A DNA stretch of 64,000 nucleotides from an uncultured virus (IMG/VR IMGVR_UViG_3300030102_007457) (Duplodnaviria; Heunggongvirae; Uroviricota; Caudoviricetes). Positions within the stretch are counted from its first letter, which is position 1. Each line of letters opens with the position of its first letter. The translations under genes were made by a program, and so were the position numbers. Shown here in pieces: positions 1-18,855 of the stretch. The notes below the pieces were generated by a model, which was given only the letters and a program-made list of their open reading frames with translations, had not been told where the DNA came from and ran no database searches. The stretch lies in IMG/VR virus record IMGVR_UViG_3300030102_007457. The stretch is one strand, 5' to 3'.

Positions 1-633
1 GGAAGGGCACACCTCGCTGTCGAGATGGAGCACAGGGGAATCGGCAGGAAGCAGCCTCTCAGGCTCGAGGACCCGAGGGAGTACATGCAGCAGATAGGGA
101 GACAGCAGGTCAGGGCCCAGCAGGGTCAGGTCCGAACACCCGCCTCCCCCTCCATACCACAGATAAGCGGCTACTCCAAGAGGGGCATGCCTAGACCCAA
201 ACTGAAGCCCATGAGAGCACCACCAATCAACCCGCCGGTCATCGCCGGCGCACCACATCTGAACATGAGCGGAGGCACAACAGGCATGGGGATGGGAGCC
301 TCTGCTCCTCCACCACCCATGCCAATCATGGCGAGCGAGGACCTGCATTCCGGCTCCGACCTGCAGAAGCGATTCGACTGGGCCACCATTCAGCAACTTC
401 GCCACATGCTGTCGGAGAGCAAGAAACTCCTGCGCGAGAAGGAGCGCAAGAGGAAGGGCAAGGGTGACGCAGACACATCAGGTGGTGGAACCATGCTTCC
501 CAACCACCCTTCCAACGGTCCCAAGCAGACGACACGTCCCTCGGGGGCGACCGAGGATGACAAGAACGACCCACGACACTTCGGTGCTCATACCATCGGC
601 AACGACGTTGGAAGGGGCGGTCGAACGGCATGA
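1..633 (+). CDS. Hypothetical Pro/Gly/Met-rich basic protein, probably 5'-truncated by the window
   Basis: Frame is open from base 1 (first ATG at 25). Its stop overlaps the next start (ATGA at 630-633). Confidence 0.7.
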   Translation, partial: GRAHLAVEMEHRGIGRKQPLRLEDPREYMQQIGRQQVRAQQGQVRTPASPSIPQISGYSKRGMPRPKLKPMRAPPINPPVIAGAPHLNMSGGTTGMGMGASAPPPPMPIMASEDLHSGSDLQKRFDWATIQQLRHMLSESKKLLREKERKRKGKGDADTSGGGTMLPNHPSNGPKQTTRPSGATEDDKNDPRHFGAHTIGNDVGRGGRTA

Positions 634-2771
634 GACTCATTCTCAAGAAGGGGTATCCGATTCTCAAGGGTGATGGCAATCACGGTGTCCACCCTGTGAC
701 AGGGGAGGCCTTCTACTACGGCAATCCCCCGCCCGAGTTCTTCCACTCTGAGGAGAACCCGCTGAACAGAAACGGCTTCGACAGACCCCTCTTCTCGCAT
801 TACGGCGAGTTGGGGATGCCGCAGGGGGAGTTCGGTCCCGGCGAGTTCGGGGAGGCCGTGTTCACAGACGAGCATGGTGTCGAGCACAGGCACGGCATCG
901 ACGGTGTTATCCACAAGGTCGGGAGGAGGCTGAGGGAGGCTGGGCTGACCAACATAAACCCCGCCGACTTCGTCAATGAGGCAATCAGGAGATTCAACGG
1001 GGCTCACAAGAACAAGGAGGAGCACAGCCTCCCCCCTGTCGACAGCCCCGAATGGAGGAAGTTGCGCTCAATGGACTTCCAGCACTCTAGGAGTAAGTCA
1101 CAGGCCTCCGAGGCCAAGGTCAGAGGCGCCGCTGGAACGCTCGGCACGGTGTACACCAACTCGGGTAGGGGCAGCCACCCCTCACTGGGCAGGTTTCACG
1201 AGTCCTATGCCATTCCCTTCGCACCCTTCCTCGCCGCCATGATGACGGATGCGGGAGTGACTCTGAACAGAAATGACGAGGGCATCAACGTCGGTCACAT
1301 CAGCGTGGCTGACCTCTCGTTCAACCCCGCCACCGGGATGCCGGTCGGTAGCAGGAAAAGGGGGGCTCAGTCGGGGGAGACGATAGGTCCCCGTGGTGAG
1401 TTGAGTGACAACTTCCTCAACAACATGGGCGTCGACGCAGGTGTAGCCGTCGACAACCTACACTCCCATGAGATGATGCAACTCCTGCCGGATGGCCTTT
1501 ATGCAACAGGTAGAGCAGGTAGACCCACCAACTTCGCAGCATTCGGCAGCATCCTCATGTCACTCGACAAATCAAAGATGCCGAAGGAACTCCTCGACGA
1601 GGTCATCATGCAGGACGAGGGGGGACCAATCACCATGAGACAGGCTCTCTCCAATGAGACGGACGCTAATGCCCTCGCTAGGAAACTCGCTGAGACTCCC
1701 GGTGCGCTACATTTCATGATGGGTGACTCAAGTCAAGGAAACACGAAGAGGATTCTCTCAGCCCTGCGCGAGCAGGTGCCTCTACCGGAGGGCGTCACAA
1801 CCGATGACATGAGAACTCACATTAAAGCGGGCTCAGTGAGGAACGCATACCAGAAGGGAAGAGGCAAGAACAGTCACAAGGATGCTGCTGAAATCTTCGC
1901 CTACGCTCAACTACTGGAAGCCGCAGGCACACCGCTGAGGAATGCTGAGATGGAGGGCGTCAATCTCCACCCCGATGTAGAGGGGCAGAGAAGACTGACA
2001 GAGAAAGTTGCTGCTGCCATATCCCATCATCACGACCACACACCTAACAGGTCTCTACTCGACGAGGTGCCGACCGGCCCCAACACCGGCAGGATGAGCG
2101 CAGGGTTTCCGACGGCCCCCATGAGCATGGACCTGCCCCAGCATCTCGACCCGTATCATCTCAAGGAGATGGCGAGCACCCCCATAGCGGAGCCGGAGCA
2201 GCAGCCAATCAGCCCGCAGTACGCTACGGTCAGGCAGCCTGCGCCCGCGCAGACCCCTCCTTCCACTCCACCGATTACTCCCAGCGAGGAATACCGACAA
2301 GCACAAAGGGCGTTCCGCTATGCGACTCCTGAGCAGGTGCGTCGCGTGTATGTAGCGAGGAGCGGTTTGGGAGGAGAGGGAAGGGCGCCAGCGCCCACCG
2401 GTCCGATGACCCCGCAGGAGCAGAGGTTCCAGCAGACGCTGTCGGACCCCTACCAGCAGACGCTCGACCAGTATCTCCGTGGTGACTCCTCGCCGATAGA
2501 GGACAGGCTCATCAAGGCGATGGAGAATCTCCAGTACAAGGACGCCGCCAACGACGATGACATCCGCAAGCACCTACCGTCGCAGACCCTGAGCATGATG
2601 AACGAGGACGACCTCTCCTACATGGCCGAGAGGATGAGCATCACGAAGCACGACGTCCGCGCCATCCTGTTCTCCAAGGGCGACTGGCATCGCGTTGCTG
2701 ACACATTCAACATGAGCCCCACCATCGTCAAGGCAGTCAAGGTGGCTTTCGGGGGTGGTACTGATGAGTAA
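630..2771 (+). CDS. Hypothetical 713-aa protein, possible head-associated protein with a C-terminal helical/HTH-like region
   Basis: Long ORF coupled to both neighbours. Contains LILKKG, ILKGD and LIKAM motifs. Confidence 0.8.
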   Translation: MRLILKKGYPILKGDGNHGVHPVTGEAFYYGNPPPEFFHSEENPLNRNGFDRPLFSHYGELGMPQGEFGPGEFGEAVFTDEHGVEHRHGIDGVIHKVGRRLREAGLTNINPADFVNEAIRRFNGAHKNKEEHSLPPVDSPEWRKLRSMDFQHSRSKSQASEAKVRGAAGTLGTVYTNSGRGSHPSLGRFHESYAIPFAPFLAAMMTDAGVTLNRNDEGINVGHISVADLSFNPATGMPVGSRKRGAQSGETIGPRGELSDNFLNNMGVDAGVAVDNLHSHEMMQLLPDGLYATGRAGRPTNFAAFGSILMSLDKSKMPKELLDEVIMQDEGGPITMRQALSNETDANALARKLAETPGALHFMMGDSSQGNTKRILSALREQVPLPEGVTTDDMRTHIKAGSVRNAYQKGRGKNSHKDAAEIFAYAQLLEAAGTPLRNAEMEGVNLHPDVEGQRRLTEKVAAAISHHHDHTPNRSLLDEVPTGPNTGRMSAGFPTAPMSMDLPQHLDPYHLKEMASTPIAEPEQQPISPQYATVRQPAPAQTPPSTPPITPSEEYRQAQRAFRYATPEQVRRVYVARSGLGGEGRAPAPTGPMTPQEQRFQQTLSDPYQQTLDQYLRGDSSPIEDRLIKAMENLQYKDAANDDDIRKHLPSQTLSMMNEDDLSYMAERMSITKHDVRAILFSKGDWHRVADTFNMSPTIVKAVKVAFGGGTDE

Positions 2772-3510
2772 GGTGCTCGTTCGCAAGCAGTTGTTCGACC
2801 CCAAGCAGACAGCGAACAACATGGCTGCTGTCAACGACCTCAGCAGTGGGGGTGCCATAGAGCAAATAGGACTTCTCAACCTCCTTGGTGGTGAGAAGTT
2901 AATCGCTCCTGTTGCCGCAGAGAAACTCGGGTACGGTATGGACTCAGACGAGTACAAGAGGTTGAAGACAGGGGAGAACATAGGCAGGGGACTAGCCGGT
3001 GCCTACGGTGGATTCAGGACATTGGACGCACTCGCCTCCGGCAGGAGCCCGACCAGCGCGATAGGCGCCGGCGCTGGGGCCTACGGCTCAGTCTCTCCCA
3101 TAGCGCGTAATATCGGTGTACGTGCTGCCGGCAGGCGCATGAAGCCAGCAGCCCCACCAGTCGCTGTGGTAAAACCCAGCCCACTGGAAGTCAAAGAACA
3201 CGAAAACCTCCAAGACGTTAATGGGATGACCCAAATGGTCTTCGACCCCAAGTACGCTGGTCCTGCTCAACCTGCTCGACCCACGATAGCGGGGCCCACA
3301 CCCGAGGATAAAGCCGAGGGATACTTCGAGGACGAGCAAATACCGGTCTTGGCCCAGCAGGGCAATAAATCAGGCAACGTCGCAGTCACTCAACCACAGT
3401 CCAAGGGTAAGAGTCCAACCGAGGAGCAAATGAAGAGACTGATGCAAACCACAATAGACGAATTTTTAGATTCCGAGGCCAAGCAATCGGGTGCAGTGCA
3501 GGGTGCGTGA
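2764..3510 (+). CDS. Hypothetical protein upstream of terminase
   Basis: ATG at 2764 follows GGGGTGG and overlaps the upstream gene end. Gly/Ala-rich middle region. Confidence 0.75.
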   Translation: MSKVLVRKQLFDPKQTANNMAAVNDLSSGGAIEQIGLLNLLGGEKLIAPVAAEKLGYGMDSDEYKRLKTGENIGRGLAGAYGGFRTLDALASGRSPTSAIGAGAGAYGSVSPIARNIGVRAAGRRMKPAAPPVAVVKPSPLEVKEHENLQDVNGMTQMVFDPKYAGPAQPARPTIAGPTPEDKAEGYFEDEQIPVLAQQGNKSGNVAVTQPQSKGKSPTEEQMKRLMQTTIDEFLDSEAKQSGAVQGA

Positions 3511-3511
3511 T

Positions 3512-5002
3512 ATGAGCGAGGAGGGTGTCAAGCAGTTCGTCTTGGAGATGGACAGGGAGATGTCCAAGAAGTCGTTCAAGTACTTCTTCACCGAGATACT
3601 GGGATTCCACTACAGCCATCACCACGAGATGTGGGAGAAGGGGCTCAGCACCCAGAGTTACTACTGCGTGAAGGCATCCCGAGACCACGGCAAGTCCACC
3701 CTGTTCATGTCATACGCGCTGTGGCTGGCGGCGTTCAACCCCGGCACCCACATCATGATTTTCTCACACTCTCTGGAGCAGACCCTCGAGCACATGCGCT
3801 TCATCCGCAACAACATAGAGACATCACCCTGTCTGAGGGGTCTCAAGCCGGAGGGCAAGCCTTGGGCCAAGTCGTACTTCGAGTTCACCAACGGCAGCCG
3901 AATGATGGCGAAGTCGGTGGGTGGTGCCACTCGTGGTTTCCACCCCGACGTCGTCGTGTGCGACGATATCCTCTGGGGTACCAGCGGGACCGAGTTGCAG
4001 AGAACGGCAGACTGGTTCTACGGCGTCCTGCTCCCCGTTCTCCACCACACCAGCAAACTCATGATGGTCGGAACACCGTTCTCCTACAACGACCTGTATG
4101 CGGAGTTGGAGCAGAAGGACACGTTCTGCGTCGAGACGTATCCCGCTATCGACAAGAAGGGCATAGCCCTGTGGCCAGAGCGGTGGAACCTAGAGGCGCT
4201 GGAGCAGAGGAGACTGTCCATGCCAGCCATACAGTTCAGCCGCGAGTACCTGTGCGAGCCCATCCACGATGTGGCCAGCATGTTCCCGATGGACATACTC
4301 GAGGCTGCGAGGGACAGGGAACTCACCCTCATAGAGAGGGCCGAGACCAACTACAACGAACTGGGTGAGGCCGACGGGGTGTGGGGACAGCACTTCATCG
4401 GCTGGGACCCAGCCATATCCTCCGACAAGAACGCCGACTACACCGCCATGACGGTGATGCGCTACTTGGGCGACGACGACATCAAGCAGATTGTGCACGT
4501 CGTTCACGACAAGGGGCTTGGCAGCAACGCCCAGAGGAATATGATGCTCATGCTCAACAACCGCTTCAAACCTGAACTCATCGAACTGGAGGGCAACAAC
4601 TTCCAGCGCATGTTCGAGGCTGAGTTGCAGAACATGAAGGCTGACATCCCTATTCGTACCTTCATGACGACTCGCACCAAGAAGGAGACTCTGTTCATGT
4701 CGCTGCTCATGGCGTTCGAGCAGGGTAAAATAAAACTTCCATACGGCAACGAGAAGAGCAGGGAGTACACACATCGCGTGGAAGAGGAACTCAACCGATT
4801 CGGCATGCAGAAGAACGGCAGGCTGGAGAGCGTCGGCGTCAACGACGACTTGGCTATGAGCCTCGCTCTGGCCAACTGGGGGACCAAGGAGTTCAAGGGC
4901 AGCGTCATGCTTCTCGATGACATCCTACCCGGCCTAGATGAATGGATGAGAGGCAAGGACCACCGAAAATCAAATTACGGGAGCCCTTGGATGATACCAT
5001 AA
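3512..5002 (+). CDS. terL: Terminase large subunit
   Basis: Walker A-like ASRDHGKS, Walker B VVCDD, coupling motif VGTP, RNase H-fold nuclease motifs IGWDPA and NDDLAMSLALA. ATG at 3512 is preferred over the ORF-track start at 3491. Confidence 0.93.
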   Translation: MSEEGVKQFVLEMDREMSKKSFKYFFTEILGFHYSHHHEMWEKGLSTQSYYCVKASRDHGKSTLFMSYALWLAAFNPGTHIMIFSHSLEQTLEHMRFIRNNIETSPCLRGLKPEGKPWAKSYFEFTNGSRMMAKSVGGATRGFHPDVVVCDDILWGTSGTELQRTADWFYGVLLPVLHHTSKLMMVGTPFSYNDLYAELEQKDTFCVETYPAIDKKGIALWPERWNLEALEQRRLSMPAIQFSREYLCEPIHDVASMFPMDILEAARDRELTLIERAETNYNELGEADGVWGQHFIGWDPAISSDKNADYTAMTVMRYLGDDDIKQIVHVVHDKGLGSNAQRNMMLMLNNRFKPELIELEGNNFQRMFEAELQNMKADIPIRTFMTTRTKKETLFMSLLMAFEQGKIKLPYGNEKSREYTHRVEEELNRFGMQKNGRLESVGVNDDLAMSLALANWGTKEFKGSVMLLDDILPGLDEWMRGKDHRKSNYGSPWMIP

Positions 5003-5011
5003 GGTGATACT

Positions 5012-5365
5012 ATGGAGTGGGAATACTGTGATTGCTGCACGCCTATGCAACATGCATCATTCACTCTGCTAGACGGTCACTTCGAGAAGGCCAAGAAGAA
5101 GTCCAAGCCGTTCCACGGCTACAACCCCAAGAGACACCACAAGAAGGGTGGTCTCAACGCCGCTGGTCGTGCCAAGTTCAAGAGAGAGACAGGGGCTAAC
5201 CTGAAGGCGCCTGTCACCACCAAGCCATCCAAACTCAAGCCCGGAAGCAAGAGGGCCAAGAGGAGAAAGTCCTTCTGTGCTCGCATGGGAGGTTCCAAGG
5301 GACCTACCAGCAAGGACGGTAAATTAACACCGAAAGGTGCAGCGTTGAAAAGGTGGAATTGTTAA
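5012..5365 (+). CDS. Small very basic phage protein (GGLNAAGR...RRKSFCARM...LKRWNC), recalled as DUF6321-like
   Basis: AGGTGA RBS and a K/R-rich sequence. The family match is from memory, not a search. Confidence 0.7.
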   Translation: MEWEYCDCCTPMQHASFTLLDGHFEKAKKKSKPFHGYNPKRHHKKGGLNAAGRAKFKRETGANLKAPVTTKPSKLKPGSKRAKRRKSFCARMGGSKGPTSKDGKLTPKGAALKRWNC

Positions 5366-5541
5366 TGGCATTGAAAAGAGATAGTTGCTGCTGCGGCGGC
5401 GATAAGAAGAACCCCTGCAAGTGTATGGAGAAGGGCGTGATGAAATGCTCGATGAAACCACCTCGATGTCCATGCTACAGCCTGCTTCACGCACAGCGCA
5501 AGGCCGCTGACAAGTTGACTAAGATGGTGTTCGTGATATGA
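5365..5541 (+). CDS. Small Cys-rich protein
   Basis: TAATG overlap with the upstream gene and ATGA overlap downstream. Contains CCC, CKC and CPC clusters. Confidence 0.6.
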   Translation: MALKRDSCCCGGDKKNPCKCMEKGVMKCSMKPPRCPCYSLLHAQRKAADKLTKMVFVI

Positions 5542-5732
5542 CTGACTCATGTGAATGCGGACATTGCACTTCCATGGGGAAGGCGTGGGACTCTCTTGAG
5601 AAGAAACTATGTCCCGAGGGCAAGGCAGCAGCAAAGAGGAAGTTCAAGGTATACCCATCAGCATACGCCAATGGCTGGGCTGTGCAGTATTGCCGTGGAA
5701 AGTTCCGTGGTAAGAAGGGGAAGAAGAAATGA
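5538..5732 (+). CDS. Small basic protein with a KFKVYPSAYANGW motif
   Basis: Translationally coupled ORF. The PSAYA motif is recalled from uncharacterised viral basic proteins. Confidence 0.7.
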   Translation: MTDSCECGHCTSMGKAWDSLEKKLCPEGKAAAKRKFKVYPSAYANGWAVQYCRGKFRGKKGKKK

Positions 5733-5785
5733 ATACCACCTACGTTCAAGACTCCAATGAGTACACCGTCTTCTGGGGTGAATGA

Positions 5786-6145
5786 ATGGAACGATGCACT
5801 TGCCATGACACCCTTGTCGTCAAGAACCTCAATCGATGGTTCAAGGAGAAATGGGTCGATGTGTCGAGGAAGGACAAAGACGGCAAACACCCACCATGCG
5901 GTAGGTCGAAGGCCAAGAAGTCAAGCAAGGGGTATCCGAAGTGCAGACCGTCAGTGAAGGTCAGCAGCGACACGCCGAAGACATCACGCTCCATGTCGAC
6001 CGGGCAGAAGAAAGCAGCCACCAAGAGAAAGAGAGCCAAGAAGCAGGGTGTCGGTGGGAAACCCACCATAGTCAAGAGCACACCTATGGATGATGCTTGG
6101 CAGATTCTCAAAGCGCCTTCTGTATTGTCAAGGGTACAGGAGTAG
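5786..6145 (+). CDS. Small basic protein with RWFKEKWVDV...CGR...YPKCRP motifs
   Basis: GGGGTGA RBS. The motifs are recalled from uncharacterised viral proteins. Confidence 0.75.
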   Translation: MERCTCHDTLVVKNLNRWFKEKWVDVSRKDKDGKHPPCGRSKAKKSSKGYPKCRPSVKVSSDTPKTSRSMSTGQKKAATKRKRAKKQGVGGKPTIVKSTPMDDAWQILKAPSVLSRVQE

Positions 6146-6154
6146 TTAAGTAAA
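6146..6154 (+). promoter_or_regulatory. Putative archaeal TATA box (TTAAGTAAA) for a leaderless transcript
   Basis: AT-rich box 21-29 nt upstream of ATG 6175 in a GC-rich background. Confidence 0.45.
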
Positions 6155-6174
6155 GGTCAAATGAGGGGTCAAGT

Positions 6175-7395
6175 ATGTGGGGCAGCGCTTTTCTCAATGA
6201 CTCCTTCCAAATCACAAAGTCAGAGCCTACCACATCGGAGAGACCAGTCATAAAGAGCATGTTCTCCATAACCGGTGAAGGTTGGTTCGAGACACACTTG
6301 GGGTGCACTGCTGCCGACTTCGTCGACAAGTTGCGCAAGATGAGGAGGAGCAACAAGGAATCCAAGACCGAGATTGACACTATCATAGAGGATGTCAGGA
6401 CCTTGAAGGCCCTCGAGGTCAAGGCCACTCTCGATTCGATACACTGGGCTGGTGATAGGTATGACACAATTCGCAATCTGGGTCTCTCCGACAGGGACCT
6501 CAAGAGCCTGCGTAGATTCTCGGACTCCAGACAAGTGGGTCTCATACAGGCCTGCAACTTGTGGGAAAACGCGGACTCTGCGCTGAAATCACTCGACGAG
6601 TTCGAGGATGTCTGGGGGGACGAGGAGCAGAGAGCATGGGCGGGCGCCATGCGCAACAAGACCGAGGCTCGCAAGATGTGGCGCTCCACCCTTCATCAGG
6701 CAGACACCCTGAGTACCAAGGACAGGGAGACACTGTCCAAGACCGCTGAGATTCTCTCGTTGGAGGGTCCTCTCAGTTCACGCTCGCTACATGAGCGCCT
6801 GATGGAACACGGTTCTGTGCACAAGAGCATGACACCCTCCAAGTTGTCGAAACTACTCAAGATGTACGGGGATGACGAGGATATCACAGCAGGTGCGTCC
6901 AGAGGCACATTCGTGAAGATGATGGGGGATGGTTTGATTCTCAAGGACCCGATGGCATACGCCGCCGGCTTCTTGGACGCGGACGGATACATCACAATAA
7001 CAGGCAGGGGTGAGGCTCGTGCAGGTTTCGTCGCAACGGGCGACAGAGGTAGGGCTCACTGCGAGCAATTGCACAAGACCCTCGACTGCGGAGTGCTGCA
7101 GTTGAATCAGAAGATTCACAAGAACAGCACCAGAAGCCAGCACAGACTTCAGTTCTACTCCAAGGCCCACGTCGAGAAACTCCTCAAGGGCATTTTACCC
7201 CATCTGAGGATGAAGGACACTCAGGCCAAGGCCGTTCTGCAATACATCCATGAGGAAGACCCCCTTCGCAAGGAGCAGTTGATGCGCGTAGTGCGCTTCT
7301 CGAATTGGAAGGATGATACTAAGAAGGCTGAGAATCTCCTGAGCGAATGGGAGTGCACTGTGGATGATATCACCAAATGGACGGAGGGACTTTGA
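6175..7395 (+). CDS. Protein with a C-terminal LAGLIDADG endonuclease-like domain and an N-terminal helical/HTH region
   Basis: AYAAGFLDADGYITI motif followed by a typical downstream pattern (LHKTLDCG...LLKGILPHLRMKDTQA). Confidence 0.85.
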   Translation: MWGSAFLNDSFQITKSEPTTSERPVIKSMFSITGEGWFETHLGCTAADFVDKLRKMRRSNKESKTEIDTIIEDVRTLKALEVKATLDSIHWAGDRYDTIRNLGLSDRDLKSLRRFSDSRQVGLIQACNLWENADSALKSLDEFEDVWGDEEQRAWAGAMRNKTEARKMWRSTLHQADTLSTKDRETLSKTAEILSLEGPLSSRSLHERLMEHGSVHKSMTPSKLSKLLKMYGDDEDITAGASRGTFVKMMGDGLILKDPMAYAAGFLDADGYITITGRGEARAGFVATGDRGRAHCEQLHKTLDCGVLQLNQKIHKNSTRSQHRLQFYSKAHVEKLLKGILPHLRMKDTQAKAVLQYIHEEDPLRKEQLMRVVRFSNWKDDTKKAENLLSEWECTVDDITKWTEGL

Positions 7396-9897: not shown

Positions 9898-10521
9898 ATG
9901 AGACCTATACCAAGCCCAGCCTCCAAAGAGGCATACGAAATGCTAGAGAAAGCACAATCCCTCCTCGAGAAGGCCATGAAAACATGCCCTTCATGCGGTG
10001 GTAAGATGGAGAAGGGGTCCTGTGTCAAGTCCCAGTGTGTGTCCAAGGCAGAGGGTAAGTGCCCTAGTTGCGGCGGCAAGTTGGACAAAGCCGGTGCCTG
10101 CATGATGAAGAGTAGTTGTAATTCTATGGCAAAGTACGGTACGATGGAGAAGGCCAGCATGGCTGAGAAGGACAAGTACTGCATGAAGAGATTCGGCAAG
10201 AAGTACTCAGAGTGCTCTGATAAGCAGAAAGCAGAATGTGACGAGGCTCACGGTAAGGTAGAGAAAGGGGAGCAGCACAGGATACAGACATTCGGCACCA
10301 CGCCTGATGTCTCTACATTCCACATCGAGACAGGTGGTAACACCTACCACCAGCAGTACAACACCAACAACACACTACTGGAATCGGAAGCCGTCACCAA
10401 CAAGGGCGCCACTAGCCAGAGTTACAACTTAGAGGCTCTCGGTGCGAAGACCAACACACACGACAGAGCAGTAGAGACTCACGAGATAGATACCGGGATG
10501 TCTGGTAGAACCAGCGTCTGA
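9898..10521 (+). CDS. Cys-rich protein with two CPSCGGK repeats
   Basis: ATG at 9898 follows GGGAG. Repeated CPSCGGK(M/L)xK motifs and many xEK|[A/G] motifs. Confidence 0.75.
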   Translation: MRPIPSPASKEAYEMLEKAQSLLEKAMKTCPSCGGKMEKGSCVKSQCVSKAEGKCPSCGGKLDKAGACMMKSSCNSMAKYGTMEKASMAEKDKYCMKRFGKKYSECSDKQKAECDEAHGKVEKGEQHRIQTFGTTPDVSTFHIETGGNTYHQQYNTNNTLLESEAVTNKGATSQSYNLEALGAKTNTHDRAVETHEIDTGMSGRTSV

Positions 10522-10531
10522 GGTGTTCTAG

Positions 10532-10672
10532 ATGTCTTTCGTCCGTGTTATCAGGAAAGCCAGAATGGCCCCCTGTGCAGCATGCGGAGTCAACCCCATG
10601 GAGGGTGAGAGAACATGCGGACTCGGTAACCACCCTATCGAGGGGTGCAATGATTACAGGCCGGTGCAATAG
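10532..10672 (+). CDS. 46-aa Cys-rich microprotein (MSFVRVIRKARMAPCAACGVNP...), absent from the ORF track
   Basis: Hand-translated. It has a GAGGTG RBS, fills the gap between genes, and contains CxxC...C...H...C. Confidence 0.65.
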   Translation: MSFVRVIRKARMAPCAACGVNPMEGERTCGLGNHPIEGCNDYRPVQ

Positions 10673-10682
10673 GTGGTAGCGT

Positions 10683-13600
10683 GTGTATGAAGACGCTGCT
10701 GACTTATTTGTGAGAGCACGTGACGCTCTCATCGATTCAGTCAAGGACGACATAGACATAGAGTCCTCGATATCCGACTACATACTGGCCAAGGCCAATC
10801 TGGAGGCGCACGACTTCACGCCCGGACACACTTGGCGTGAGATACTCTGCGACACTCTGGTCAAGAACGAAGAAGATGGCTTCATCCGACCGGGCAAGTT
10901 CGAGGCTGAGATGAGAGCCATAAGGAGGAGGAGGCACAAGGGTCATCTTCCCACGGAACACAATCACTGGTCAGGCAGAGTCATCAACAGCAGGGACAAA
11001 CTCCCCATAGGTGTGACTCACGGCCTGCCAATCGACGTTCGTGCGGACTTCGAGAGATACTACGGCAGAGCGGACGAGCATATCTTCTCATCCCTATTCG
11101 ACCCCCTTGAGAAGAAGTCGATGACGAAGGGCATACCTAGGAAGATTGAACTGCTCGCAAGGAGATTCCTCCCTGACGAGGACGGGAACTCCCGCGCCAA
11201 GCAGGTGAAGGATGCCGAGAGGCTCATCGAGGACTGGATGAAGAAGACCAACAGCCCTCATGTCAGGGAGAACAAGCAGGGTACCTACTCATACCCCTTA
11301 CTCGGTCCACTCGGCGACTCAGCGGACCAGTCCATACTCAGCCACGAGCACGACCTCTACGAGAGGGACTTCAGGAGATGGAGCGAGGAGAATGAGCAGG
11401 GTGAGGACAACAGGGAAATCAGGGAGAAGCACTTCAACGCGAGAGCACGGGACTGGATGGACAAGGACAACAAGGCTACCTTGGAAGCAGGTATGACCGA
11501 GGAGGAGAGAGGGCTTGTTGAATTCTATCCCGATTCACCAGAGGCCAAGGAGATAATGGAGAGGGATAAGTCAATCTCCAACCACCCATCATACCTCAAC
11601 CACCTCTCATTCATGCTGGGCCTAGAGTGGCTCTCGCCGGAGGAGCGCACCAAGGTCATAGAGCACATATCACCCGGCAGTCACGGTAGCGACTCCAAGG
11701 AGCAGCACGTGAAGTTCGACGACGGTACGCGCCTTCCGATGGGTCGCCTCAAGAGGAATATGAGAATGAGAGGGACCAACGCCCTCAGTCATGTCAGGCG
11801 AGGACCGAAGGCAGGGCCCCATAACGTCGCACCGGTGTGGTCGCAGAACCTACCATCCGACCCGCCAGACAAGAGAGCGCTCTTCTCAGCACTGGAATCA
11901 GCCTATGTCGATAAAGAGGGGGAGGTCACCTTCGACAGGAAAGAAGCGGACAGCAAGGGTCACAGCAGACTCATGGATGTGGCGATGAGGAACCTGCATG
12001 AGGCCTTCGGGGTGAACACGGACGACCCGAAGGACGAGGTATTCATGCACCTGCCAAATATAGACTCACGCGGTCTATCCAGATTCAATGAGGATGAGAT
12101 GATGGATGAGATGAAGACTCTGACAGCATCCAAGAAGAAGGGCAACGTCGTTCCCAGAGACAACCTGCTGCACGCTCTGGGCTTCAACTCGAAGGGGGAG
12201 GAGACACCAGTAGGGGAGCATGGGTATCCAGAGCACTCAGGTCCCCTCATCACAAACTCTCAACTGCAGTCCCTGCTCAGGAAGGAGAATGAGAACGTCT
12301 CGTTGAGAGACAGGCAGAGAGAGGTTCAGGACATTCTGTCCATGTTCAGCACCAACGTCGGCTTCAAGGACACTGAAGCCATACCGGAGGAGATTCAGAA
12401 GGCTATGGATATACTCGGTGGGAAGCATCTCGCCCATGACTTCGCCGCACCCTATCTGGAGGGAGGACACGCAATCGACCAGCACATATACGCCACCAAG
12501 TTGCATGACCATCATCAGATGGATAATGAGAGCCTCATCGCCTCAGTCAACCGTCAGAAGGAGAGCATCGTTCCCCAATCAATCAACATGGGCCTATTCG
12601 GACATCTGATTAGACCCGAGGCAGAGGCTCCTCTAGGACCTCATTACATGCAGCACATGTCCAACTTCCTCGGTGGAGACACCGGCAACCACGCTCTCTC
12701 GTCAGTCACCTCATCGGGGATAGCAGCACTCATCCATGGACTAAGACAGTCAGAAGTGAATAGCAAGTTTGGCAGGAAGATGGGCATAGACCAGATGAAT
12801 AACATGTTCGTGGATGCAGCCAACGAGGGTACTAGGAAGAACATACCATACGGCAAGTCGCTCGATATGCTGGCTCCCAAGGAGATAGACAGCGATAAAC
12901 TCGATGTGGGTGAAGATAGCATCTCGCAAACCGACCTATTCGCAGGCGGCGGTTCTGTCAAGAGAGAACAAGAGCCTGTGATACACACCTCCGGTGAGCA
13001 GAATAGGAACAAGATAGAGGCGATGAGGCTGGCCATGCTGCTGAGTTCGAGCGAGCGATTCCCAACCTCGGTGTCTGCCCATGACTTCCCAGACTCCTCC
13101 ATGCTCGACTACAACAAGAGATACGGCAATCTGGATGAGGAGGGAAGGGTGCTCACGGGCCGGAACAGACCAAAGAAGTCCAGACACATCGACCAGTTGA
13201 ACCTGAAGCATCAATACGACATACACTCAATCAACCAAGTCGCCAAGCATCTAGCGACCCTCCTGCCGGAGGAGGCGCTCGACCCCAGCAACCCTTCATT
13301 CGATGCCAACGTGCGAAGGCTGTTCCACGATGCCGAGCGTGCCATCCACATCTTGCCGAGCGAGTACTGGGAGAGTGTGGGAGTGAGGCCCCTGACAGCG
13401 GACTACATGGTGGAGAATCAAACACAGACAGCGGAGCCGGTCTACCCATCACTGAGAGAGCGTCTCACCACCGGCGGAGGGGTGCCAATCACCAGACTCT
13501 CAGACGCATCCGAGATAGCGGAGCAACTCGGCTTTCCCTCCGACGAGGCACATACTAAGCATATCCAATCCTACCTAGACACGATACCCGATGATGATGT

Positions 13601-16283
13601 CCACTTCATACAGTCGAATCACAATCTCATCAAGGAACATGGCGATGTCATGGGTATAGACTCATCCATGTACGACTCGCATCTCGACGACCATCTCAAG
13701 GAGCAGCACGGTCATGGTGCAGGTGCGGGAGACGCTCCCCTTCAGGCGGAGATGAGGAATCTCAAGAGCATGAGAAGCAGAATGGAGAAGAGAGTGAGGG
13801 AAGGCGATGATTCCTTCACTCCCCAGTTGATGCAGATTGAGTCTAGAATCTCAGAAATAGAACCCCTTCTGGAGAGGGAGAAGGAAGTCACGGGATACGA
13901 CGCCCTCCATAGCAGAGCAGCACGGCACCTCGAGGAGAACAGAGCAGACAGGGCGAGCATGGTGCTTGAGAGGCTGGCCAGAAAAGTCGGGGTCGATGTG
14001 GACGCGTCCAACCCCAAGCAGGCACTGGAGTCAATCGGCGACAGTATATCCGAGATGCGCGGCGACTTGGGGTACGGCAGACAACTGCACGGTCACAGCG
14101 AGGCCGTCCAAGGAATCTTCAACAGAGACAGGAAGGAGCAGCATGCAGCCTTCGGCCTCAGCAGGATTCAAGCGCCGGTGGACCCAGATACGAAAAACAC
14201 CTCTTTCATGAGAACCGGTCAGAAGGAATTGTACAGGAGGGGCAAGATGACAAACAAGCACAACCAGACCCTCCACAACCTGCGTGACTTGGTGGTGTAT
14301 GACCCGAGCAATGACACCGGCGCTGACGAGAGCACGAAGTTCGACACCCAGAGAATTTCATTCAACGCCCAACCGGCAATGCCCTTCGGCGCAGGCGGGG
14401 CGAGTATGATGCATTACTTCACAAGCGCTTCTAATAACAAGCAGTTCGGTCACTCTGTGCGTCCCACACACGGCTTCGAGTTCGGAGACACGCCGGAGGT
14501 CGGGACCGAGACATTCGACCAGCGGCTCTCATCAGTTCCCCAGCACATGATATCAGCGGCTCTAGGACCCGATATCGCTGACTCCTATATCAGAAACGGT
14601 ATGGACGGCGTCTACCCGATTCCCGAGTTCGAGCCACCTGCACTCAGAGGTGGAGCCACGGGTGTTCCAATGACTCAGGACCCGAACGTCGGCAAGAGCA
14701 TAGAGGACGCTGGACTGTATGCCACATACCTGCTAAACCCCGACCTCATCGTCAAGGCCGATTCCTCACCGGAGTGGATTCCACCCATCCGCCCCATGCA
14801 TCGTATCTTCAGGCTCAGGGACTTGGATGAACTCAGGGGCTTCACAGGTAGTTGGGTCGTCTCCAAGTGGTACGAAGGCGACAGGATAGTCCTGACCAAG
14901 AAGAAGAACAGGGTGAAGGCGTTCGACGAGGACGGCGGTCAGAGGGCAATACCCGACTGGGCCAAGAGCGGCGTCAAGAATCTCGGCGAGAAGGACTGCA
15001 CCTTGGACGGCATCCTCGGCAAGGACACACTCCATATCATAGACATACTGCACTATGACGGCACCGACATCATGGATATGAACGTCAGAGAGAGGTTCAA
15101 GGTTCTCAGAGGCCAGTACGACAGCCATGAGCAGGTGCTGCTATCAGGCCCCCATGACACCCGCTTTACCGACGAGGAGGGTCTGGAGGATGCAGTCAAG
15201 ACATTGCAGTCCGAGCACAGGACCCTCCTTCTCAGAGACGGCAAGAGCACATACATGCGCGGTGAGAGGAGACATCCCAAGTGGGTGGTGCTGAGACCCA
15301 ACAGGGACATCAACCTCATCGTGCTTGACAGGAGGGGCAATGGCCCCTACACATACAGGCTCGGCGCAGGTCCGCTGCTGGATGGGGACGGTCTCGACGA
15401 CAGAGCGGTCGACCACGACGGCAAGGTGTATCTCGACGCTGGCACGGTATCCAGTCCCAAGCCCTTCGAGGAGGGTGACATAGTACGCGTGAGGTTCTCA
15501 GGCATCAAGAGGGAGAAGAAGGGGGGTCGTGACATATTCACAATCAACCCGTCGAAGTTGGTCGGCGAGGGAGAGGGCGAGTCCAGCGTGTCGATGGAGA
15601 CTCTGTCACTGCTCGCCAAGAGTTTCCCACCAGTCCACCTCGCACACGGTATAGACATAGAGGACAGAGCGATAGTCGTCACCCTCCCCACGGAGAGCCA
15701 AGTCACTTACACACTCGAGAAGAGCAGCCTAGGCCATTGGGTTCACTCACCGACAACTCCGCTCTCGGACATGGGCATGGATACTTACAGCATAGAACTA
15801 TCCGAGAGCCTCAAGCCCTTCTGGGGAGAGGTTGCCAGTATGATGCTGAAGGGTAAGATTGAGCGCCAGAAAGAAACTGAGAGCGAAGTAACCCCATCAG
15901 AGGAGCAGCAGGAGCACCACAGGCGCAAGGTGGAGGGTGAGAGCGCAGGTATAATCAAGCCCGGAGACAAGAACATCCTACTCAAACCCAAGATGAAGAA
16001 GGCGCTGGAGGTCCTCGAGAGGGCTCTCGACGTGCTCGAGAAGGAGCAGATGTTCAACACCACAGGAGCCAAGGGTCTTGGTATCGACTTGGGCGGAGGG
16101 ACACAGAGCCCTAGGGGCCCAACGAGACTGACCTCGGAGATGTCGCTCCCCGACTGGGACATGAAGGAGAGACCAGAGGAGGACCCGGAAGAGGAGTATC
16201 CGAAGGCGAGAGAACTCAGGAGAAGGAAGAAAGGCTCTAAGTCAAGCGATTCTGAACATAAAACTAATCCAGAGCAGGAATAA
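10683..16283 (+). CDS. 1866-aa protein: large unknown N-terminal region plus an ATP-dependent DNA ligase-fold domain (adenylation and OB) with degenerate catalytic motifs
   Basis: PIRPM, WVVSKWYEGDR, LDGIL, IIDILHYDG, ERFKVL, LLLRDGKSTY..GERRHPKWVVLRP and an OB-like region occur in ligase motif order. Confidence 0.85.
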   Translation: MYEDAADLFVRARDALIDSVKDDIDIESSISDYILAKANLEAHDFTPGHTWREILCDTLVKNEEDGFIRPGKFEAEMRAIRRRRHKGHLPTEHNHWSGRVINSRDKLPIGVTHGLPIDVRADFERYYGRADEHIFSSLFDPLEKKSMTKGIPRKIELLARRFLPDEDGNSRAKQVKDAERLIEDWMKKTNSPHVRENKQGTYSYPLLGPLGDSADQSILSHEHDLYERDFRRWSEENEQGEDNREIREKHFNARARDWMDKDNKATLEAGMTEEERGLVEFYPDSPEAKEIMERDKSISNHPSYLNHLSFMLGLEWLSPEERTKVIEHISPGSHGSDSKEQHVKFDDGTRLPMGRLKRNMRMRGTNALSHVRRGPKAGPHNVAPVWSQNLPSDPPDKRALFSALESAYVDKEGEVTFDRKEADSKGHSRLMDVAMRNLHEAFGVNTDDPKDEVFMHLPNIDSRGLSRFNEDEMMDEMKTLTASKKKGNVVPRDNLLHALGFNSKGEETPVGEHGYPEHSGPLITNSQLQSLLRKENENVSLRDRQREVQDILSMFSTNVGFKDTEAIPEEIQKAMDILGGKHLAHDFAAPYLEGGHAIDQHIYATKLHDHHQMDNESLIASVNRQKESIVPQSINMGLFGHLIRPEAEAPLGPHYMQHMSNFLGGDTGNHALSSVTSSGIAALIHGLRQSEVNSKFGRKMGIDQMNNMFVDAANEGTRKNIPYGKSLDMLAPKEIDSDKLDVGEDSISQTDLFAGGGSVKREQEPVIHTSGEQNRNKIEAMRLAMLLSSSERFPTSVSAHDFPDSSMLDYNKRYGNLDEEGRVLTGRNRPKKSRHIDQLNLKHQYDIHSINQVAKHLATLLPEEALDPSNPSFDANVRRLFHDAERAIHILPSEYWESVGVRPLTADYMVENQTQTAEPVYPSLRERLTTGGGVPITRLSDASEIAEQLGFPSDEAHTKHIQSYLDTIPDDDVHFIQSNHNLIKEHGDVMGIDSSMYDSHLDDHLKEQHGHGAGAGDAPLQAEMRNLKSMRSRMEKRVREGDDSFTPQLMQIESRISEIEPLLEREKEVTGYDALHSRAARHLEENRADRASMVLERLARKVGVDVDASNPKQALESIGDSISEMRGDLGYGRQLHGHSEAVQGIFNRDRKEQHAAFGLSRIQAPVDPDTKNTSFMRTGQKELYRRGKMTNKHNQTLHNLRDLVVYDPSNDTGADESTKFDTQRISFNAQPAMPFGAGGASMMHYFTSASNNKQFGHSVRPTHGFEFGDTPEVGTETFDQRLSSVPQHMISAALGPDIADSYIRNGMDGVYPIPEFEPPALRGGATGVPMTQDPNVGKSIEDAGLYATYLLNPDLIVKADSSPEWIPPIRPMHRIFRLRDLDELRGFTGSWVVSKWYEGDRIVLTKKKNRVKAFDEDGGQRAIPDWAKSGVKNLGEKDCTLDGILGKDTLHIIDILHYDGTDIMDMNVRERFKVLRGQYDSHEQVLLSGPHDTRFTDEEGLEDAVKTLQSEHRTLLLRDGKSTYMRGERRHPKWVVLRPNRDINLIVLDRRGNGPYTYRLGAGPLLDGDGLDDRAVDHDGKVYLDAGTVSSPKPFEEGDIVRVRFSGIKREKKGGRDIFTINPSKLVGEGEGESSVSMETLSLLAKSFPPVHLAHGIDIEDRAIVVTLPTESQVTYTLEKSSLGHWVHSPTTPLSDMGMDTYSIELSESLKPFWGEVASMMLKGKIERQKETESEVTPSEEQQEHHRRKVEGESAGIIKPGDKNILLKPKMKKALEVLERALDVLEKEQMFNTTGAKGLGIDLGGGTQSPRGPTRLTSEMSLPDWDMKERPEEDPEEEYPKARELRRRKKGSKSSDSEHKTNPEQE

Positions 16284-16330: not shown

Positions 16331-17701
16331 GTGTTGTCACAACCACTACGTGCAACAGGGGAGTCAAATCTTCGGTTGCTCAAGGGTGGTGACCTCGTCG
16401 TCGCTGGATATGCCAGCGTCGAAGTGGTAGACAAACAAGGCGACAAAATAACCAAGCAAGCACTCAAAGACGCATTCAAGAAATACATGGAGGACCCGAA
16501 GTTCAGAAACGTGCAACTAGCGCATTCAAACATACAAGTCGGGGAAGTAATACCATCATACACTGATAACGAAGGGAGGTTCTGGAAAAGCGAGGTTGAC
16601 GATGTCGGGATGTTCGTGGTAGTATCACTGCGAGACGACATCGAGAAAGCAAAGGAAGTCGCTGCGGAAATCAGGAAGGGAGCCCTTCGTGGATTCAGCA
16701 TCGGTGGTCAGGCATTCAAAAGAGTGAGGAAGTCGGACCCCGAGCATGGAGACTACCAAGAAATCAGCAAGTTAGAACTACATGAGATTACAATCTGCGA
16801 GCGAGGCATCAATCCAGAAGCGACGTTCAAGATTCTTAAAGAAGATAAAAAACAAAACAAGGTGACAAAAATGACAGAAGACAATGACGTAATGACGCAA
16901 ATGACAGACGTTCTTTCACGTCTAGAAGGTCGTCTAGATGCATTTGAGAAAGGCATGCCTGCTGGACTCAAAGAGCACATGGAAGACAAGAAGGACGACA
17001 AGAAAGAAGAGAAAGATGACAAGAAGAAAACCGAGGACGTTGAAAAGTCCGAAGAGTACTCTGATGTCATCTCCTCAGAATATCTCGATTGGATGGAGAA
17101 CACCCTCAAGTCCGCTGGTGTGGACGTAACAGGTGCTCGAACCCACTTCGACGATGTGGCAAAAGGTAACCTAGGCTCAGACCCCAAAGTTATCGGAGAC
17201 GGTGGTTCCTACTTCGGTGGGCAAGCACCCGGTAGAGAGACTGAAGACGGCAAGCCGGAAGTCCCCAAGGCCGAGTTCGGCGCTGGTGGCAAGGGCAAGA
17301 AGTCCAAAGTCGCAAAATCCGACTACCTGACCCCAGACGCTGTTTCCTCCGCTGACGTGGAAGCCGCATACGAGGTATACAAGGCCGCTATGCTCGAGGC
17401 AGAGTTGAAGAAATCCCTAGAAGGGGAATTCTCATCCCGCTACGAGTCAGAGCGCAGTGCTGAACTCACCAAGGCTGCAGCCCTAGAGTTCGACGCACGC
17501 GGTCCACTTGACGAGATACAGAAGTCCATCGCCTCTCTAGCAGAGCGCGTCGAGGCTATCAGTGCTCCAGCAGAATCCGGTGAGACAATCACCAAGTCCG
17601 CTGCTGTTCCATCCGTAGATGTTCCCTCCACTGCTGACCTAGCGTCAATGTCGTGGGACGAGGTGCACAACCTCGCAACAAAGGCCTTCAGGGGGGCCTG
17701 A
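16331..17701 (+). CDS. HK97-type prohead protease fused to a C-terminal scaffold region
   Basis: VAGYAS, DKQGD, catalytic-His region QLAH, GFSIGG (catalytic Ser), LHEITI and GINPEA, followed by an acidic coiled-coil tail. Confidence 0.9.
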   Translation: MLSQPLRATGESNLRLLKGGDLVVAGYASVEVVDKQGDKITKQALKDAFKKYMEDPKFRNVQLAHSNIQVGEVIPSYTDNEGRFWKSEVDDVGMFVVVSLRDDIEKAKEVAAEIRKGALRGFSIGGQAFKRVRKSDPEHGDYQEISKLELHEITICERGINPEATFKILKEDKKQNKVTKMTEDNDVMTQMTDVLSRLEGRLDAFEKGMPAGLKEHMEDKKDDKKEEKDDKKKTEDVEKSEEYSDVISSEYLDWMENTLKSAGVDVTGARTHFDDVAKGNLGSDPKVIGDGGSYFGGQAPGRETEDGKPEVPKAEFGAGGKGKKSKVAKSDYLTPDAVSSADVEAAYEVYKAAMLEAELKKSLEGEFSSRYESERSAELTKAAALEFDARGPLDEIQKSIASLAERVEAISAPAESGETITKSAAVPSVDVPSTADLASMSWDEVHNLATKAFRGA

Positions 17702-17724
17702 ATAAGCAACAGAGGTGATTATGA

Positions 17725-18855
17725 ATGGCACGAGATTACGTACGAACAATAACAGACATGGAGCGCTACTACTACGGCGCTGGAAACGCAATGGGATACT
17801 CCTACTCAGGCAGTGAACTATTGAAAGCGGATGCACCAATGCTGTCCACGACTGCTGGTACATACCAAGCAATCTACGGGCGCAAGGTCTGGTCGCAGTT
17901 GAACCAAGAGTTCAACGCCTTCAGTATCCTACCAAAGAGGCCTTGGGACAGGTCGGGATGGAGAGTCATCACCGGTAAGCCCAACGGCGGAGCACTCCAC
18001 GGCGGCGTAGCAGAGAACGGCACTCTTCCTGAAACAGTGAAGCCTGTCTTCCAGCACGTTGCTGCAAAGCCCAAGACGATTGCACACACCTTCGACATGT
18101 CGGAGACCGCAATCTTCCTCGCCGACAAGGACGACGGCCTCGGAGACATCCGAGCAGTCATGAAGGAAGAGATGGGTAAGCACCACGCTGAGATGGTCAA
18201 CAAGATGCTCCTCACGGACGTCACGACCACTGCTGGAAACAACTTCGAGTCTCTGGACCGAGTTACGACTGGTAACACGAGCATGGCAGCAGGTCAACAC
18301 TTTACCGCTGGTGAAGAGGACATCTACTCCATCGACAGGAGCGAGAACACATGGTCCTTCGCTGAGGACAACGCTAATGCAACCAGCACTAACAGGACAC
18401 TCAGCCTCGACCATCTTGACACGCTCTTCCAGCAAATCTGGGAGCGCGGTGGAAACCCGAAAGTCATCCTAACCGGATATGACACTCTGATGAGACTACA
18501 GCAACTGCTACAGTCCCAGCAGAGGTTCATGGAGGAGAAGAGAGTGACCCCCACCTACAACGGTGTGAAGGGTGTTCCCGGTATGGAAGCCGGATTCATC
18601 GTTGCCACATACAACGGTGTACCAATCATCCCGACCAAGGACATGCCGAAAGATGGTATCAGCAGGATGTACTTCCTCGACACAGACTACCTATACTTCA
18701 GCACTGCAATACCAACGCAGTACTACGAGAGTGGAATTGAGACAGGCGACCCATTCGCCATCAACAGGCTCGGTCAGGAAGGACTGTACCGAACCATGGG
18801 TGAGATGTGGACTACTTTCTTCGGCGCACAGGGGAGTGTGAGGGACCTCCAGTGA
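17725..18855 (+). CDS. Major capsid protein (HK97 fold, halovirus/magrovirus type)
   Basis: Follows the protease and has a GAGGTGA RBS. Motifs include IYGRKVWSQLN, ILPKRPW, FESLDR, YNGVPII and YFLDTDYL. Confidence 0.9.
   Translation: MARDYVRTITDMERYYYGAGNAMGYSYSGSELLKADAPMLSTTAGTYQAIYGRKVWSQLNQEFNAFSILPKRPWDRSGWRVITGKPNGGALHGGVAENGTLPETVKPVFQHVAAKPKTIAHTFDMSETAIFLADKDDGLGDIRAVMKEEMGKHHAEMVNKMLLTDVTTTAGNNFESLDRVTTGNTSMAAGQHFTAGEEDIYSIDRSENTWSFAEDNANATSTNRTLSLDHLDTLFQQIWERGGNPKVILTGYDTLMRLQQLLQSQQRFMEEKRVTPTYNGVKGVPGMEAGFIVATYNGVPIIPTKDMPKDGISRMYFLDTDYLYFSTAIPTQYYESGIETGDPFAINRLGQEGLYRTMGEMWTTFFGAQGSVRDLQ

Follow-up and report, generated by a model that had tools for sequence, protein, structure and literature searches.

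The protease gp4 of bacteriophage HK97 removes about 104 N-terminal residues, as a passage of PMC9024508 states. For larger phages, the part of PMC10052503 that lists head cleavages gives 14 sites in 9 proteins of SPN3US, with the motif A-X-E, and 19 proteins each in phiKZ and 201phi2-1. Group A magroviruses are uncultured and carry a halovirus-like head module, an archaeal replication block and a thermosome gene, according to the passages of PMC5434244 that concern them. The stretch of DNA analysed here (IMG/VR record IMGVR_UViG_3300030102_007457; 64,000 nucleotides (nt), hereafter the window) is of this type, and its head module repeats a short lysine motif in a fusion of prohead protease and scaffold, in the putative leader of the major capsid protein (MCP) and in several neighbouring open reading frames (ORFs). 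It is probable, in our view, that the S78 protease fused to the scaffold cuts after the Lys (P1) of [L/I/V/M/F]-x-K|[A/S/G], P2' often being D or E, and that its substrates are the scaffold, the MCP leader and some of the neighbouring proteins.

By gene content, the window fits the published description of group A magroviruses, to the extent that these passages of PMC5434244 give it. The caudoviral structural block occupies the plus strand (25-56978), to which all coordinates below refer unless stated otherwise. The halovirus-like head module is accompanied by an archaeal replication block, by a thermosome subunit gene on the minus strand (57666-59168; Cpn60_TCP1, E 5e-129) and by an ERCC4 nuclease, encoded on the minus strand at the right end of the window. 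The MCP is 32-33% identical to those of the haloviruses HVTV-1, HCTV-1 and HCTV-5. A preliminary description of this DNA had placed it in an archaeal virus, and the thermosome, the ERCC4 nuclease and the 33% identity of the MCP to that of HVTV-1 agree with this and point to a magrovirus. Magroviruses are abundant and uncultured, and their assembly can therefore be read only from sequence. Narrow keyword searches of the literature on magroviruses and prohead proteases returned no description of magrovirus cut sites, and the consulted portions of PMC4284463, PMC3950731, PMC6471424 and PMC8651126 contain no cleavage data.

The protease domain forms residues 1-175 of the fusion protein (16331-16855) and matches PF04586 (Peptidase_S78) over residues 23-172 (E 3.9e-10; 40.5 bits, cut-off 21); further matches, at E 5e-15 or weaker, are to PHROG families of head maturation proteases. 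A BLASTP alignment with HK97 gp4 (25% identity, E 2e-5) places S123 on gp4 S114 and H65 two columns off gp4 H65, the two gp4 residues which we take to be catalytic. Moreover, D34, H65 and S123 are invariant in 26 relatives, four of which are only 20-23% identical, so the protease had been rightly assigned to the HK97 family.

The motif was counted as [ILVF]-x-K-[ASG], and the expectation was obtained from 2000 shuffles of each protein that keep its composition and hence are Lys-matched. The protease-scaffold (16331-17701) holds 15 copies against 2.6 expected, and the 11 ORFs of 630-16283 upstream of it hold 29 against 14.3 (z=4.0), a number that none of the 2000 shuffles reached. The MCP (17725-18855) has a single copy, with 0.8 expected. 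Further along the plus strand, the motif stays near its expectation in the 21 downstream ORFs (27 observed, 23.0 expected; z=0.9), as it does in the six minus-strand ORFs (8 and 6.1). The excess over a Lys-matched background is thus real in the head region, and the motif is, as had been noticed beforehand, relatively rarer in the tail genes. Twelve control patterns, in which P1 was R, E, D or Q, the residue class at P1' or P3 was another, or the motif was reversed or shifted in its spacing, were flat in the scaffold and the upstream set, save for K[ASG] and [ILVF]-x-K, which are parts of the motif and were expected to be enriched.

Conservation was followed in related IMG/VR stretches, of which 329 were found by the protease and 201 by the large terminase (TerL); 160 loci were kept. 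Homologues covering at least 70% were taken from these loci, reduced to less than 90% identity (non-redundant below) and aligned, and families with fewer than five homologues were dropped. The 22 non-redundant homologues of the scaffold contain 241 motifs against 47.3 expected. In the scaffold part proper (residues 176-456, 16856-17698), conserved K|[ASG] sites lie at K207, K278, K329, K351, K361, K381, K398 and K422. Lys is present in 23/23 sequences at K18, K207, K278, K329 and K351 and at the fold-internal K86, K106 and K116, and in 22/23 at K398 and K422. Lys is invariant at 9 columns of the family, and at most of the columns just listed the flanking residues P3, P2 and P1' vary within their class, K329 alone appearing in 13 distinct tetrads among 23 sequences. 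The full motif LLK|GG at K18 is found in 23/23 sequences and is a candidate N-terminal cut. All sites listed in the preliminary description are present in the sequence; ILK|ED, at K170 of the protease, has E at P1' and falls outside the [ASG] class. Cutting at all conserved scaffold sites would yield fragments of 10-71 amino acids (aa). The AlphaFold2 (AF2) model of the protein is of low confidence (predicted local distance difference test, pLDDT, 60.7), and in it the pLDDT falls below 50 in segments that contain or adjoin K207, K239, K313, K329 and K422.

The strongest case beside the scaffold is the MCP. Its predicted mature part (residues 35-376, 17827-18855) is free of the motif and matches PF17236 (SU10_MCP; 50.8 bits, cut-off 24.1) and phrog_24667 (E 5e-60), and its putative leader (residues 1-34, 17725-17826) ends in ELLK|AD, with the boundary at K34|A35. 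The AF2 model is confident (pLDDT 89.4, predicted template modelling score 0.85), its only uncertain part being residues 1-30 (pLDDT 54-68), and it matches the chains 7f38_A (Z 21.3, root-mean-square deviation (rmsd) 2.9, 286 residues aligned) and HK97 1ohg_A (Z 17.6, rmsd 3.6, 253 residues aligned). The HK97 fold of the MCP is therefore found by model, structure match and family alike. Residues 49-376 of the model align with 119-383 of the HK97 chain, and with HK97 residue 119 on model residue 49, HK97 S104 falls near model residue 34. A direct homologue search with the MCP gave matches of at least 84% identity throughout the top 120 listed, and a search of representatives was used instead. 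It found 514 relatives, of which 119 of the 150 listed were aligned, 31 short or partial ones being left out; the resulting set of 120 MCPs, window included, contains relatives at 30-56% identity. In the column of K34, 88 of the 120 have K and 14 have R, while 20 more have K one column later; the P3 residue is hydrophobic (L, I, F or V) in 90, A, S and G occupy P1' in 65, 11 and 2, and 66 have the full motif. Among close homologues, the motif stands at the ELLK|AD site in 11/11 non-redundant sequences. The leaders, which are 23-85 aa long in the 40 alignment rows printed, carry 101 motifs against 12.2 expected in the 120 proteins (site included), and the mature parts carry 69 against 117.1. 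The motif is thus conserved at the predicted border of leader and mature protein and avoided in the putative shell, and the MCP is predicted to be cut after Lys at the start of its N-arm, at K34|A35. The same count in HK97 served as a positive control: gp5 has 5 motifs where 1.42 are expected, and 4/5 lie in the 103-aa delta domain. One of these is FNK|S at residues 103/104 of gp5, the known maturation site, so that the cut after Lys at K103|S104, on which the preliminary description had leaned, fits the motif.

Similar conservation is found in part of the upstream genes. In non-redundant homologues the motif is enriched in ORF 630-2771 (79 observed, 33.3 expected; n=19), ORF 6175-7395 (213 and 81.4; n=44), ORF 9189-9545 (91 and 19.7; n=47), ORF 9554-9895 (100 and 12.5; n=46) and ORF 9838-10521 (117 and 26.5; n=33). 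ORF 25-633 (7 and 9.9) and TerL (6 and 25.9; n=21) show no enrichment, and neither do most tail families, the family of ORF 20589-22154 reaching 46 against 23.1. Overall, the motif occupies 36 columns, spread over 8 families, in half or more of the sequences, and the sites, including those of the scaffold and the MCP leader, are accordingly conserved in magrovirus homologues. Pooled over the 36 columns, P3 is L (38), I (27), V (18), M (9) or F (7) and P1' is A (49), S (29) or G (23), with E or D favoured at P2'.

Three of the enriched families are small proteins encoded between the portal and the protease. ORF 9189-9545 encodes a candidate core protein of 118 aa with the sites LAK|SH (K33) and ITK|SD (K56); at K56, beside a gap-rich stretch, Lys is present in 48/48 non-redundant sequences and the motif in 43/48, in 18 tetrads. 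The 113-aa product of ORF 9554-9895 is a candidate prohead core or second scaffold protein, as its end (residues 74-113, nt 9773-9892) resembles the end of the scaffold: VLK|SE (K76; motif in 40/47 non-redundant sequences, 16 tetrads, in a gap-rich linker) is followed by a 20-residue spacer and MSWEEIH. In the C-terminal module of the scaffold (17588-17698), ITK|SA (K422) is followed by a 20-residue spacer, MSWDEVH and two short helices. This module is conserved in the non-redundant alignment, and its helices (434-438 and 442-454) are the most conserved part of the scaffold tail and have the best model confidence outside the protease domain (pLDDT 76-80). Comparison of the profiles with hhalign matched residues 74-106 of ORF 9554-9895 to scaffold residues 420-452 (probability 92%, E 6.6e-7), and the pattern [ST]W[DE][DE][IVL]H occurs at these two tails only in all six frames of the window. 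ORF 9554-9895 therefore shares the C-terminal module of the scaffold, with a putative cut site at the identical 20-residue spacing. We propose that the shared tail is a putative capsid-docking end of the scaffold that was copied onto a second small protein, and no other observation points as clearly to the entry of at least one upstream ORF into the prohead. A complex prediction from the MCP alignment and the ORF 9554-9895 alignment scored 0.00, which gives no answer and is evidence neither way. In the all-against-all profile comparison of the 13 head families, this was the only clear pair, the other 12 families reached no more than 25% probability among themselves, and no leader common to the candidates appeared.

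The third small protein, a CxxC zinc-ribbon protein encoded by ORF 9838-10521, would be 227 aa long, or more likely 207 aa from an ATG at 9898, just past the stop of ORF 9554-9895. It has 5 motifs against 0.82 expected in the window (K38, K45, K70, K84, K143), and at these five columns the motif is kept by 19-30 of 34 non-redundant sequences; it contains two CPSCGGK repeats, and its matches to zinc ribbons lie below the Pfam cut-offs. Both this protein and the product of the adjacent 46-aa ORF 10532-10672 are Cys-rich CxxC proteins. The latter ORF, which is unannotated, is where the IRK|AR site of the preliminary description is located; the site itself exists. With 2-5 conserved sites each, the three small proteins would end as short peptides rather than as matured forms, and they look like degradable core or scaffold proteins and not like cargo trimmed to mature domains.

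The code extends to related lineages. In HVTV-1, the genes from portal to MCP sum to 18 motifs against 6.9 expected (gp119: 5 and 1.44; gp114: 3 and 0.5) and the tail genes to 4 against 7.2. All three strict motifs of the HVTV-1 MCP lie within its first 70 residues; by eye, ...MSK|AD stands at the place that matches the window site, and tblastn puts window residue 6 at HVTV-1 residue 75. Furthermore, in seven loci (L164-L170) whose MCPs are related to P0188, a distant representative, motifs were counted in the ORFs that lie up to about 3 kb upstream of the MCP. Each of L164-L168 has one or more enriched ORFs there: 11 against 2.8 in the similar loci L167 and L168, 6 against 1.5 and 4 against 1.2 in L164, and 4 against 1.1 in L165 and L166. 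The signal is weak in L169 (6 and 3.0) and absent in L170, and a search for related loci with another distant MCP, P0227, found none. Judged by these counts, the putative lysine code occurs widely in this MCP clade, but not throughout it.

The statistics of the motif, the way in which its sites are conserved, the homologies and the folds are observed, and from them we infer every cut and any packaging. The scaffold, docked to the MCP through its C-terminal two-helix tail, would co-assemble with the MCP. The activated protease would then cleave about 8-9 conserved sites of the scaffold, giving peptides of at most 71 residues, which can exit the shell, and may destroy itself. Removal of the 34-residue MCP leader at K34|A35 would leave the mature, motif-avoiding subunit of HK97 fold. 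The proteins of 9189-9545, 9554-9895 and 9838-10521, which carry the same code, would be prohead core or auxiliary scaffold proteins and would be broken up likewise, and a 713-aa protein (cut at K13) and an 1866-aa protein (cut at K37 and K1358) may be true processed passengers. While the case is strong for the scaffold and the MCP leader, the three small proteins and the leader of the 713-aa protein are good candidates; about 4-7 extra substrates, mostly core- or scaffold-like, are probable.

The 713-aa protein is encoded by ORF 630-2771, begins with a putative 13-residue leader ending in ILK|GD (nt 630-668) and has further sites near its C-terminus (K629, K683, K701), making 6 motifs against 1.29 expected in the window. 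In 20/20 sequences, at 24-83% identity, a hydrophobic-x-K|[GAS] site stands at K13, in 12 different tetrads. It has no family match, and an Atlas search returned no usable feature match and structure rows with TM of at most 0.22. The 1866-aa head-module protein (10683-16283) carries LAK|AN (K37), IVK|AD (K1358, nt 14754-14756) and a C-terminal cluster; among 7 non-redundant sequences the motif is kept at K37 and K1358 in 7/7 and at K1646, K1680, K1723 and K1773 in 6/7. About 90 residues beyond K1358 begins a stretch resembling the nucleotidyltransferase of ATP-dependent DNA ligases (residues about 1450-1563, nt 15030-15371), which matches the DNA ligase 4eq5_A of the PDB (E 4e-5) and PF01068 clusters in the Atlas (feature score 0.94). 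A ligase-like domain within a head gene is unusual. That this protein is packaged is a guess from its position and its two conserved sites.

The 1866-aa protein is a weak candidate substrate, as are three products encoded between TerL and the portal. ORF 6175-7395 encodes a conserved 406-aa protein with VHK|SM at K217 (motif in 36/45 non-redundant sequences) and 4 motifs against 1.58 expected in the window (p=0.07). Its C-terminal half is homing-endonuclease-like (phrog_5046, E 2.5e-9 on residues 259-367), with a LAGLIDADG-like GFLDADGYI. As it is conserved in 105 related loci, in the interval between TerL and portal, it has the look of an endonuclease fusion that is fixed and possibly domesticated, and not of a sporadic insert. 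The other two products are small, basic and Lys-rich, and their genes, ORFs 5012-5365 and 5786-6145, follow directly after TerL. The first is a 117-aa DUF6321 protein (PF19846, E 1.4e-17; 1 motif against 0.63) with FEK|AK at K26, kept in 4/5 non-redundant homologues. The second, a 119-aa DUF5872 protein (PF19197, E 4e-12; 2 motifs against 0.72), has IVK|ST and, at residues 100-109 (nt 6083-6112), PMDDAWQILK|AP. The latter contains a W-x-h-h-K tag (h, hydrophobic), and no other long open frame of the window has one; the other match, at nt 19947, lies one residue past a stop. Among the 10,247 ORFs of related loci the tag has 26 copies, 10 of them N-terminal, and in the loci L158 and L159 a ...AW..[MI]K|AKKKSK junction precedes a DUF6321-like basic stretch inside longer ORFs. 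The longer form W-x-x-h-h-K has two matches only in the window, both in unrelated minus-strand frames. Not candidates are the portal, ORF 25-633, TerL (3491-5002; phrog_38, E 3.5e-64), which has no motif against 1.28 expected, and ORF 2755-3510, which has none either, with 0 against 5.9 in its homologues. The depletion in the TerL family and in ORF 2755-3510 may mean that proteins in contact with the prohead avoid the motif, or may be due to chance in a conserved family.

Among the alternatives, the one that survives best is that only the scaffold and the MCP leader are cut, as in HK97, and that the upstream copies are inherited helix features of small helical proteins which never meet the protease. 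We consider it unlikely, and several observations lend it weight and tell against a wider set of substrates. The upstream excess is confined to 5/11 ORFs (630-2771, 6175-7395, 9189-9545, 9554-9895 and 9838-10521; 18 observed, 4.26 expected), which were singled out only after seeing the data, so that recurrence in most upstream genes had been overstated; the remaining six ORFs, TerL and portal included, are null (11 and 10.03). The portal itself (7377-9149; phrog_18178, E 2.5e-62) is not enriched (2 motifs against 1.23, and 40 against 35.4 in homologues), nor is the 1866-aa protein (6 against 5.1 in the window, 38 against 32.8 in homologues), and a homing-endonuclease-like half, as in ORF 6175-7395, is an odd thing to package. 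Taken per lysine, a crude comparison, 0.087 of the upstream lysines stand in motif context against 0.070 in the rest of the window, which is not significant (Fisher p=0.43). A higher content of A, S, G and hydrophobic residues in the tail proteins raises the number of motifs expected there, and with the per-lysine comparison null, the upstream result hinges on the composition correction. Motif counts in homologues are phylogenetically non-independent, as the sequences share ancestry. In the candidate families, [ILVF]-x-K-[ILVFM] is likewise enriched (2.15-fold), so that helical periodicity has some share in the signal. The AF2 model of the fusion has K207 exactly at a predicted helix end, K351, K361, K381 and K398 inside long helices, and K86, K106, K116 and K134 inside the protease fold. 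The idea that every motif copy is cut was for this reason dropped: copies in the protease fold and in long helices may be inaccessible, and not every copy need be cut.

The virus vir519 (locus L163, Methanofastidiosa host) belongs with these points, as neither an enrichment of the motif nor the MCP site is found in it; the code is accordingly limited to some lineages of the MCP clade, and the vir519 protease, if present, probably has another specificity. Before its MCP lies a 799-aa ORF (11851-14250), its presumed scaffold, which is Lys-rich and helical with an acidic coiled-coil tail. Against an explanation by helix features alone, this protein has only 1 motif where 2.4 are expected. Similarly, R, E and Q at P1 are unenriched though equally suited to helices: in the candidate families, pooled post hoc, the ratios for A, S and G at P1' are 5.6, 3.3 and 2.5 after K and 0.86, 0.74 and 0.75 after R. 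Motif columns with many tetrads persist in gap-rich, otherwise variable linkers (9189-9545, 9554-9895, 630-2771), and ORF 9554-9895 has the scaffold tail together with its putative cut site at identical spacing. These observations incline us to a protease that acts on the scaffold, the MCP leader and some of the neighbours.

Decidedly improbable is the wider proposal of the preliminary description, that about a dozen non-capsid proteins are packaged and trimmed to mature virion domains in the manner of the T4 internal proteins or the ejection proteins of phiKZ and SPN3US. Such systems do exist, in SPN3US, phiKZ and 201phi2-1 according to the passages of PMC10052503, and some features of the window would suit one: a motif site is found within the first 40 residues of 8/13 head-region proteins and of 3/28 others (Fisher p=0.0014), the 13-residue leader of ORF 630-2771 is fully conserved, K1358 is conserved ahead of the ligase-like stretch, and the W-x-h-L-K tag is found on ORF 5786-6145 and on N-termini in related loci. 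The number of a dozen does not stand, since only about five upstream families keep their enrichment in homologues and TerL, ORF 2755-3510, ORF 25-633 and the portal do not. Nor does the cutting into mature domains, as three of the five enriched families are the small core- or scaffold-like proteins, whose several sites each would reduce them to short peptides. Moreover, the all-against-all profile comparison gave no shared leader, the only pair to pass being ORF 9554-9895 and the scaffold. Finally, a role of the motif as a docking or recognition element, for instance within an amphipathic helix with affinity for the portal or the capsid interior, or as a site of another Lys-directed modification, is highly improbable, for although the W-x-h-L-K tag ends in the same hydrophobic-x-K and several copies lie inside predicted helices, the motif fits the known HK97 cut, is concentrated in leaders and depleted from mature MCPs, and marks the border between the length-variable and the conserved parts of the MCP.

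A more far-reaching form of the preferred reading is doubtful, and we offer it as a speculation: the scaffold tail would be a portable capsid address, copied to a separate protein, and short Lys-ended leaders would load the 713-aa and 1866-aa enzymes into the head and then be removed, the ligase-like part being freed at K1358. If true, an enzyme-cargo system operated by an HK97-type protease would have been inferred in an archaeal tailed virus for the first time.

Outside the head module, three features of the window are recorded. The tail region contains a single ORF of 5528 aa (27964-44550), which had no Pfam match when scanned as two halves, and within the tail module a SAP-domain protein is encoded at 24964-25596 (PF02037, E 2.7e-10). 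The G+C content falls from about 0.55 to 0.45-0.47 between about 52000 and 58000, over a 1718-aa ORF (50789-55945) and its neighbours, and this may be a host-recognition region that was recently exchanged.

A tested code would give the mature ends of the capsid protein and the scaffold and would predict, among the orphan ORFs of the head module, which products are transient core proteins and which are possibly delivered into the host. It would also name semi-specific peptides for proteomics searches, and would show the lysine rule of HK97 serving multi-substrate processing in archaeal viruses as well as in bacteriophages.

Compared with known systems, the window extends a known rule of phage maturation, and the mechanism itself is not new. 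HK97 gp4/gp5 shares with it the S78 protease, the HK97 capsid fold and the place in the fold of the predicted mature N-terminus. In the window, unlike in HK97, the scaffold is fused to the protease and not to the MCP, the MCP leader has only 34 residues, the host is archaeal, and the code is also carried by separate small proteins and possibly by two large ones; we know of no such extra protease substrates in HK97. The closest cultured relative of the head module is that of HVTV-1 (portal, gp113-gp116, protease gp119, MCP gp120), in which the genes stand in the same order and large ORFs likewise separate portal and protease, gp113 and gp115 recalling the 1866-aa protein by their position. It differs in an MCP leader of about 100 residues and in that its large ORFs are different proteins, one of them annotated as 'zeta toxin'. 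Phage P1 offers a further likeness of arrangement: DarB, of 251 kDa, is named among the head proteins in a passage of PMC9024508 and is encoded directly before Prt and Pro. Like the 1866-aa protein, to which it has no homology, it is a very large enzyme-bearing ORF beside portal and protease.

In phiKZ, 201phi2-1 and SPN3US, with their gp175/gp245 proteases, many head propeptides are removed at a short motif and long propeptides are cut repeatedly, as the passages of PMC10052503 describe, and in this the window would resemble them. They differ in their specificity for Glu, a different protease family, bacterial hosts and cuts measured by mass spectrometry, where those of the window are predicted. 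The two short helices at the end of the window scaffold, as modelled, recall by shape the P22-type scaffolding proteins, in which a C-terminal helix-turn-helix binds the coat protein. The fullest parallel is the prohead core of T4 (gp21, gp22, gp67, gp68, IPI-III, Alt). The T4 protease gp21 is of a different family and cuts after Glu in L/I-x-E, and a common N-terminal targeting sequence, as in T4, was not found by hhalign among the 13 head families of the window, where the only shared address seen is the scaffold tail on ORF 9554-9895. The gene order of T4 is 20-67-68-21-22-23, so that small core genes lie between those of portal and protease, as the candidate core genes of the window do, and in T4, as would be the case in the window, one protease reads a three-residue code on the scaffold, the MCP leader, core proteins and passengers.

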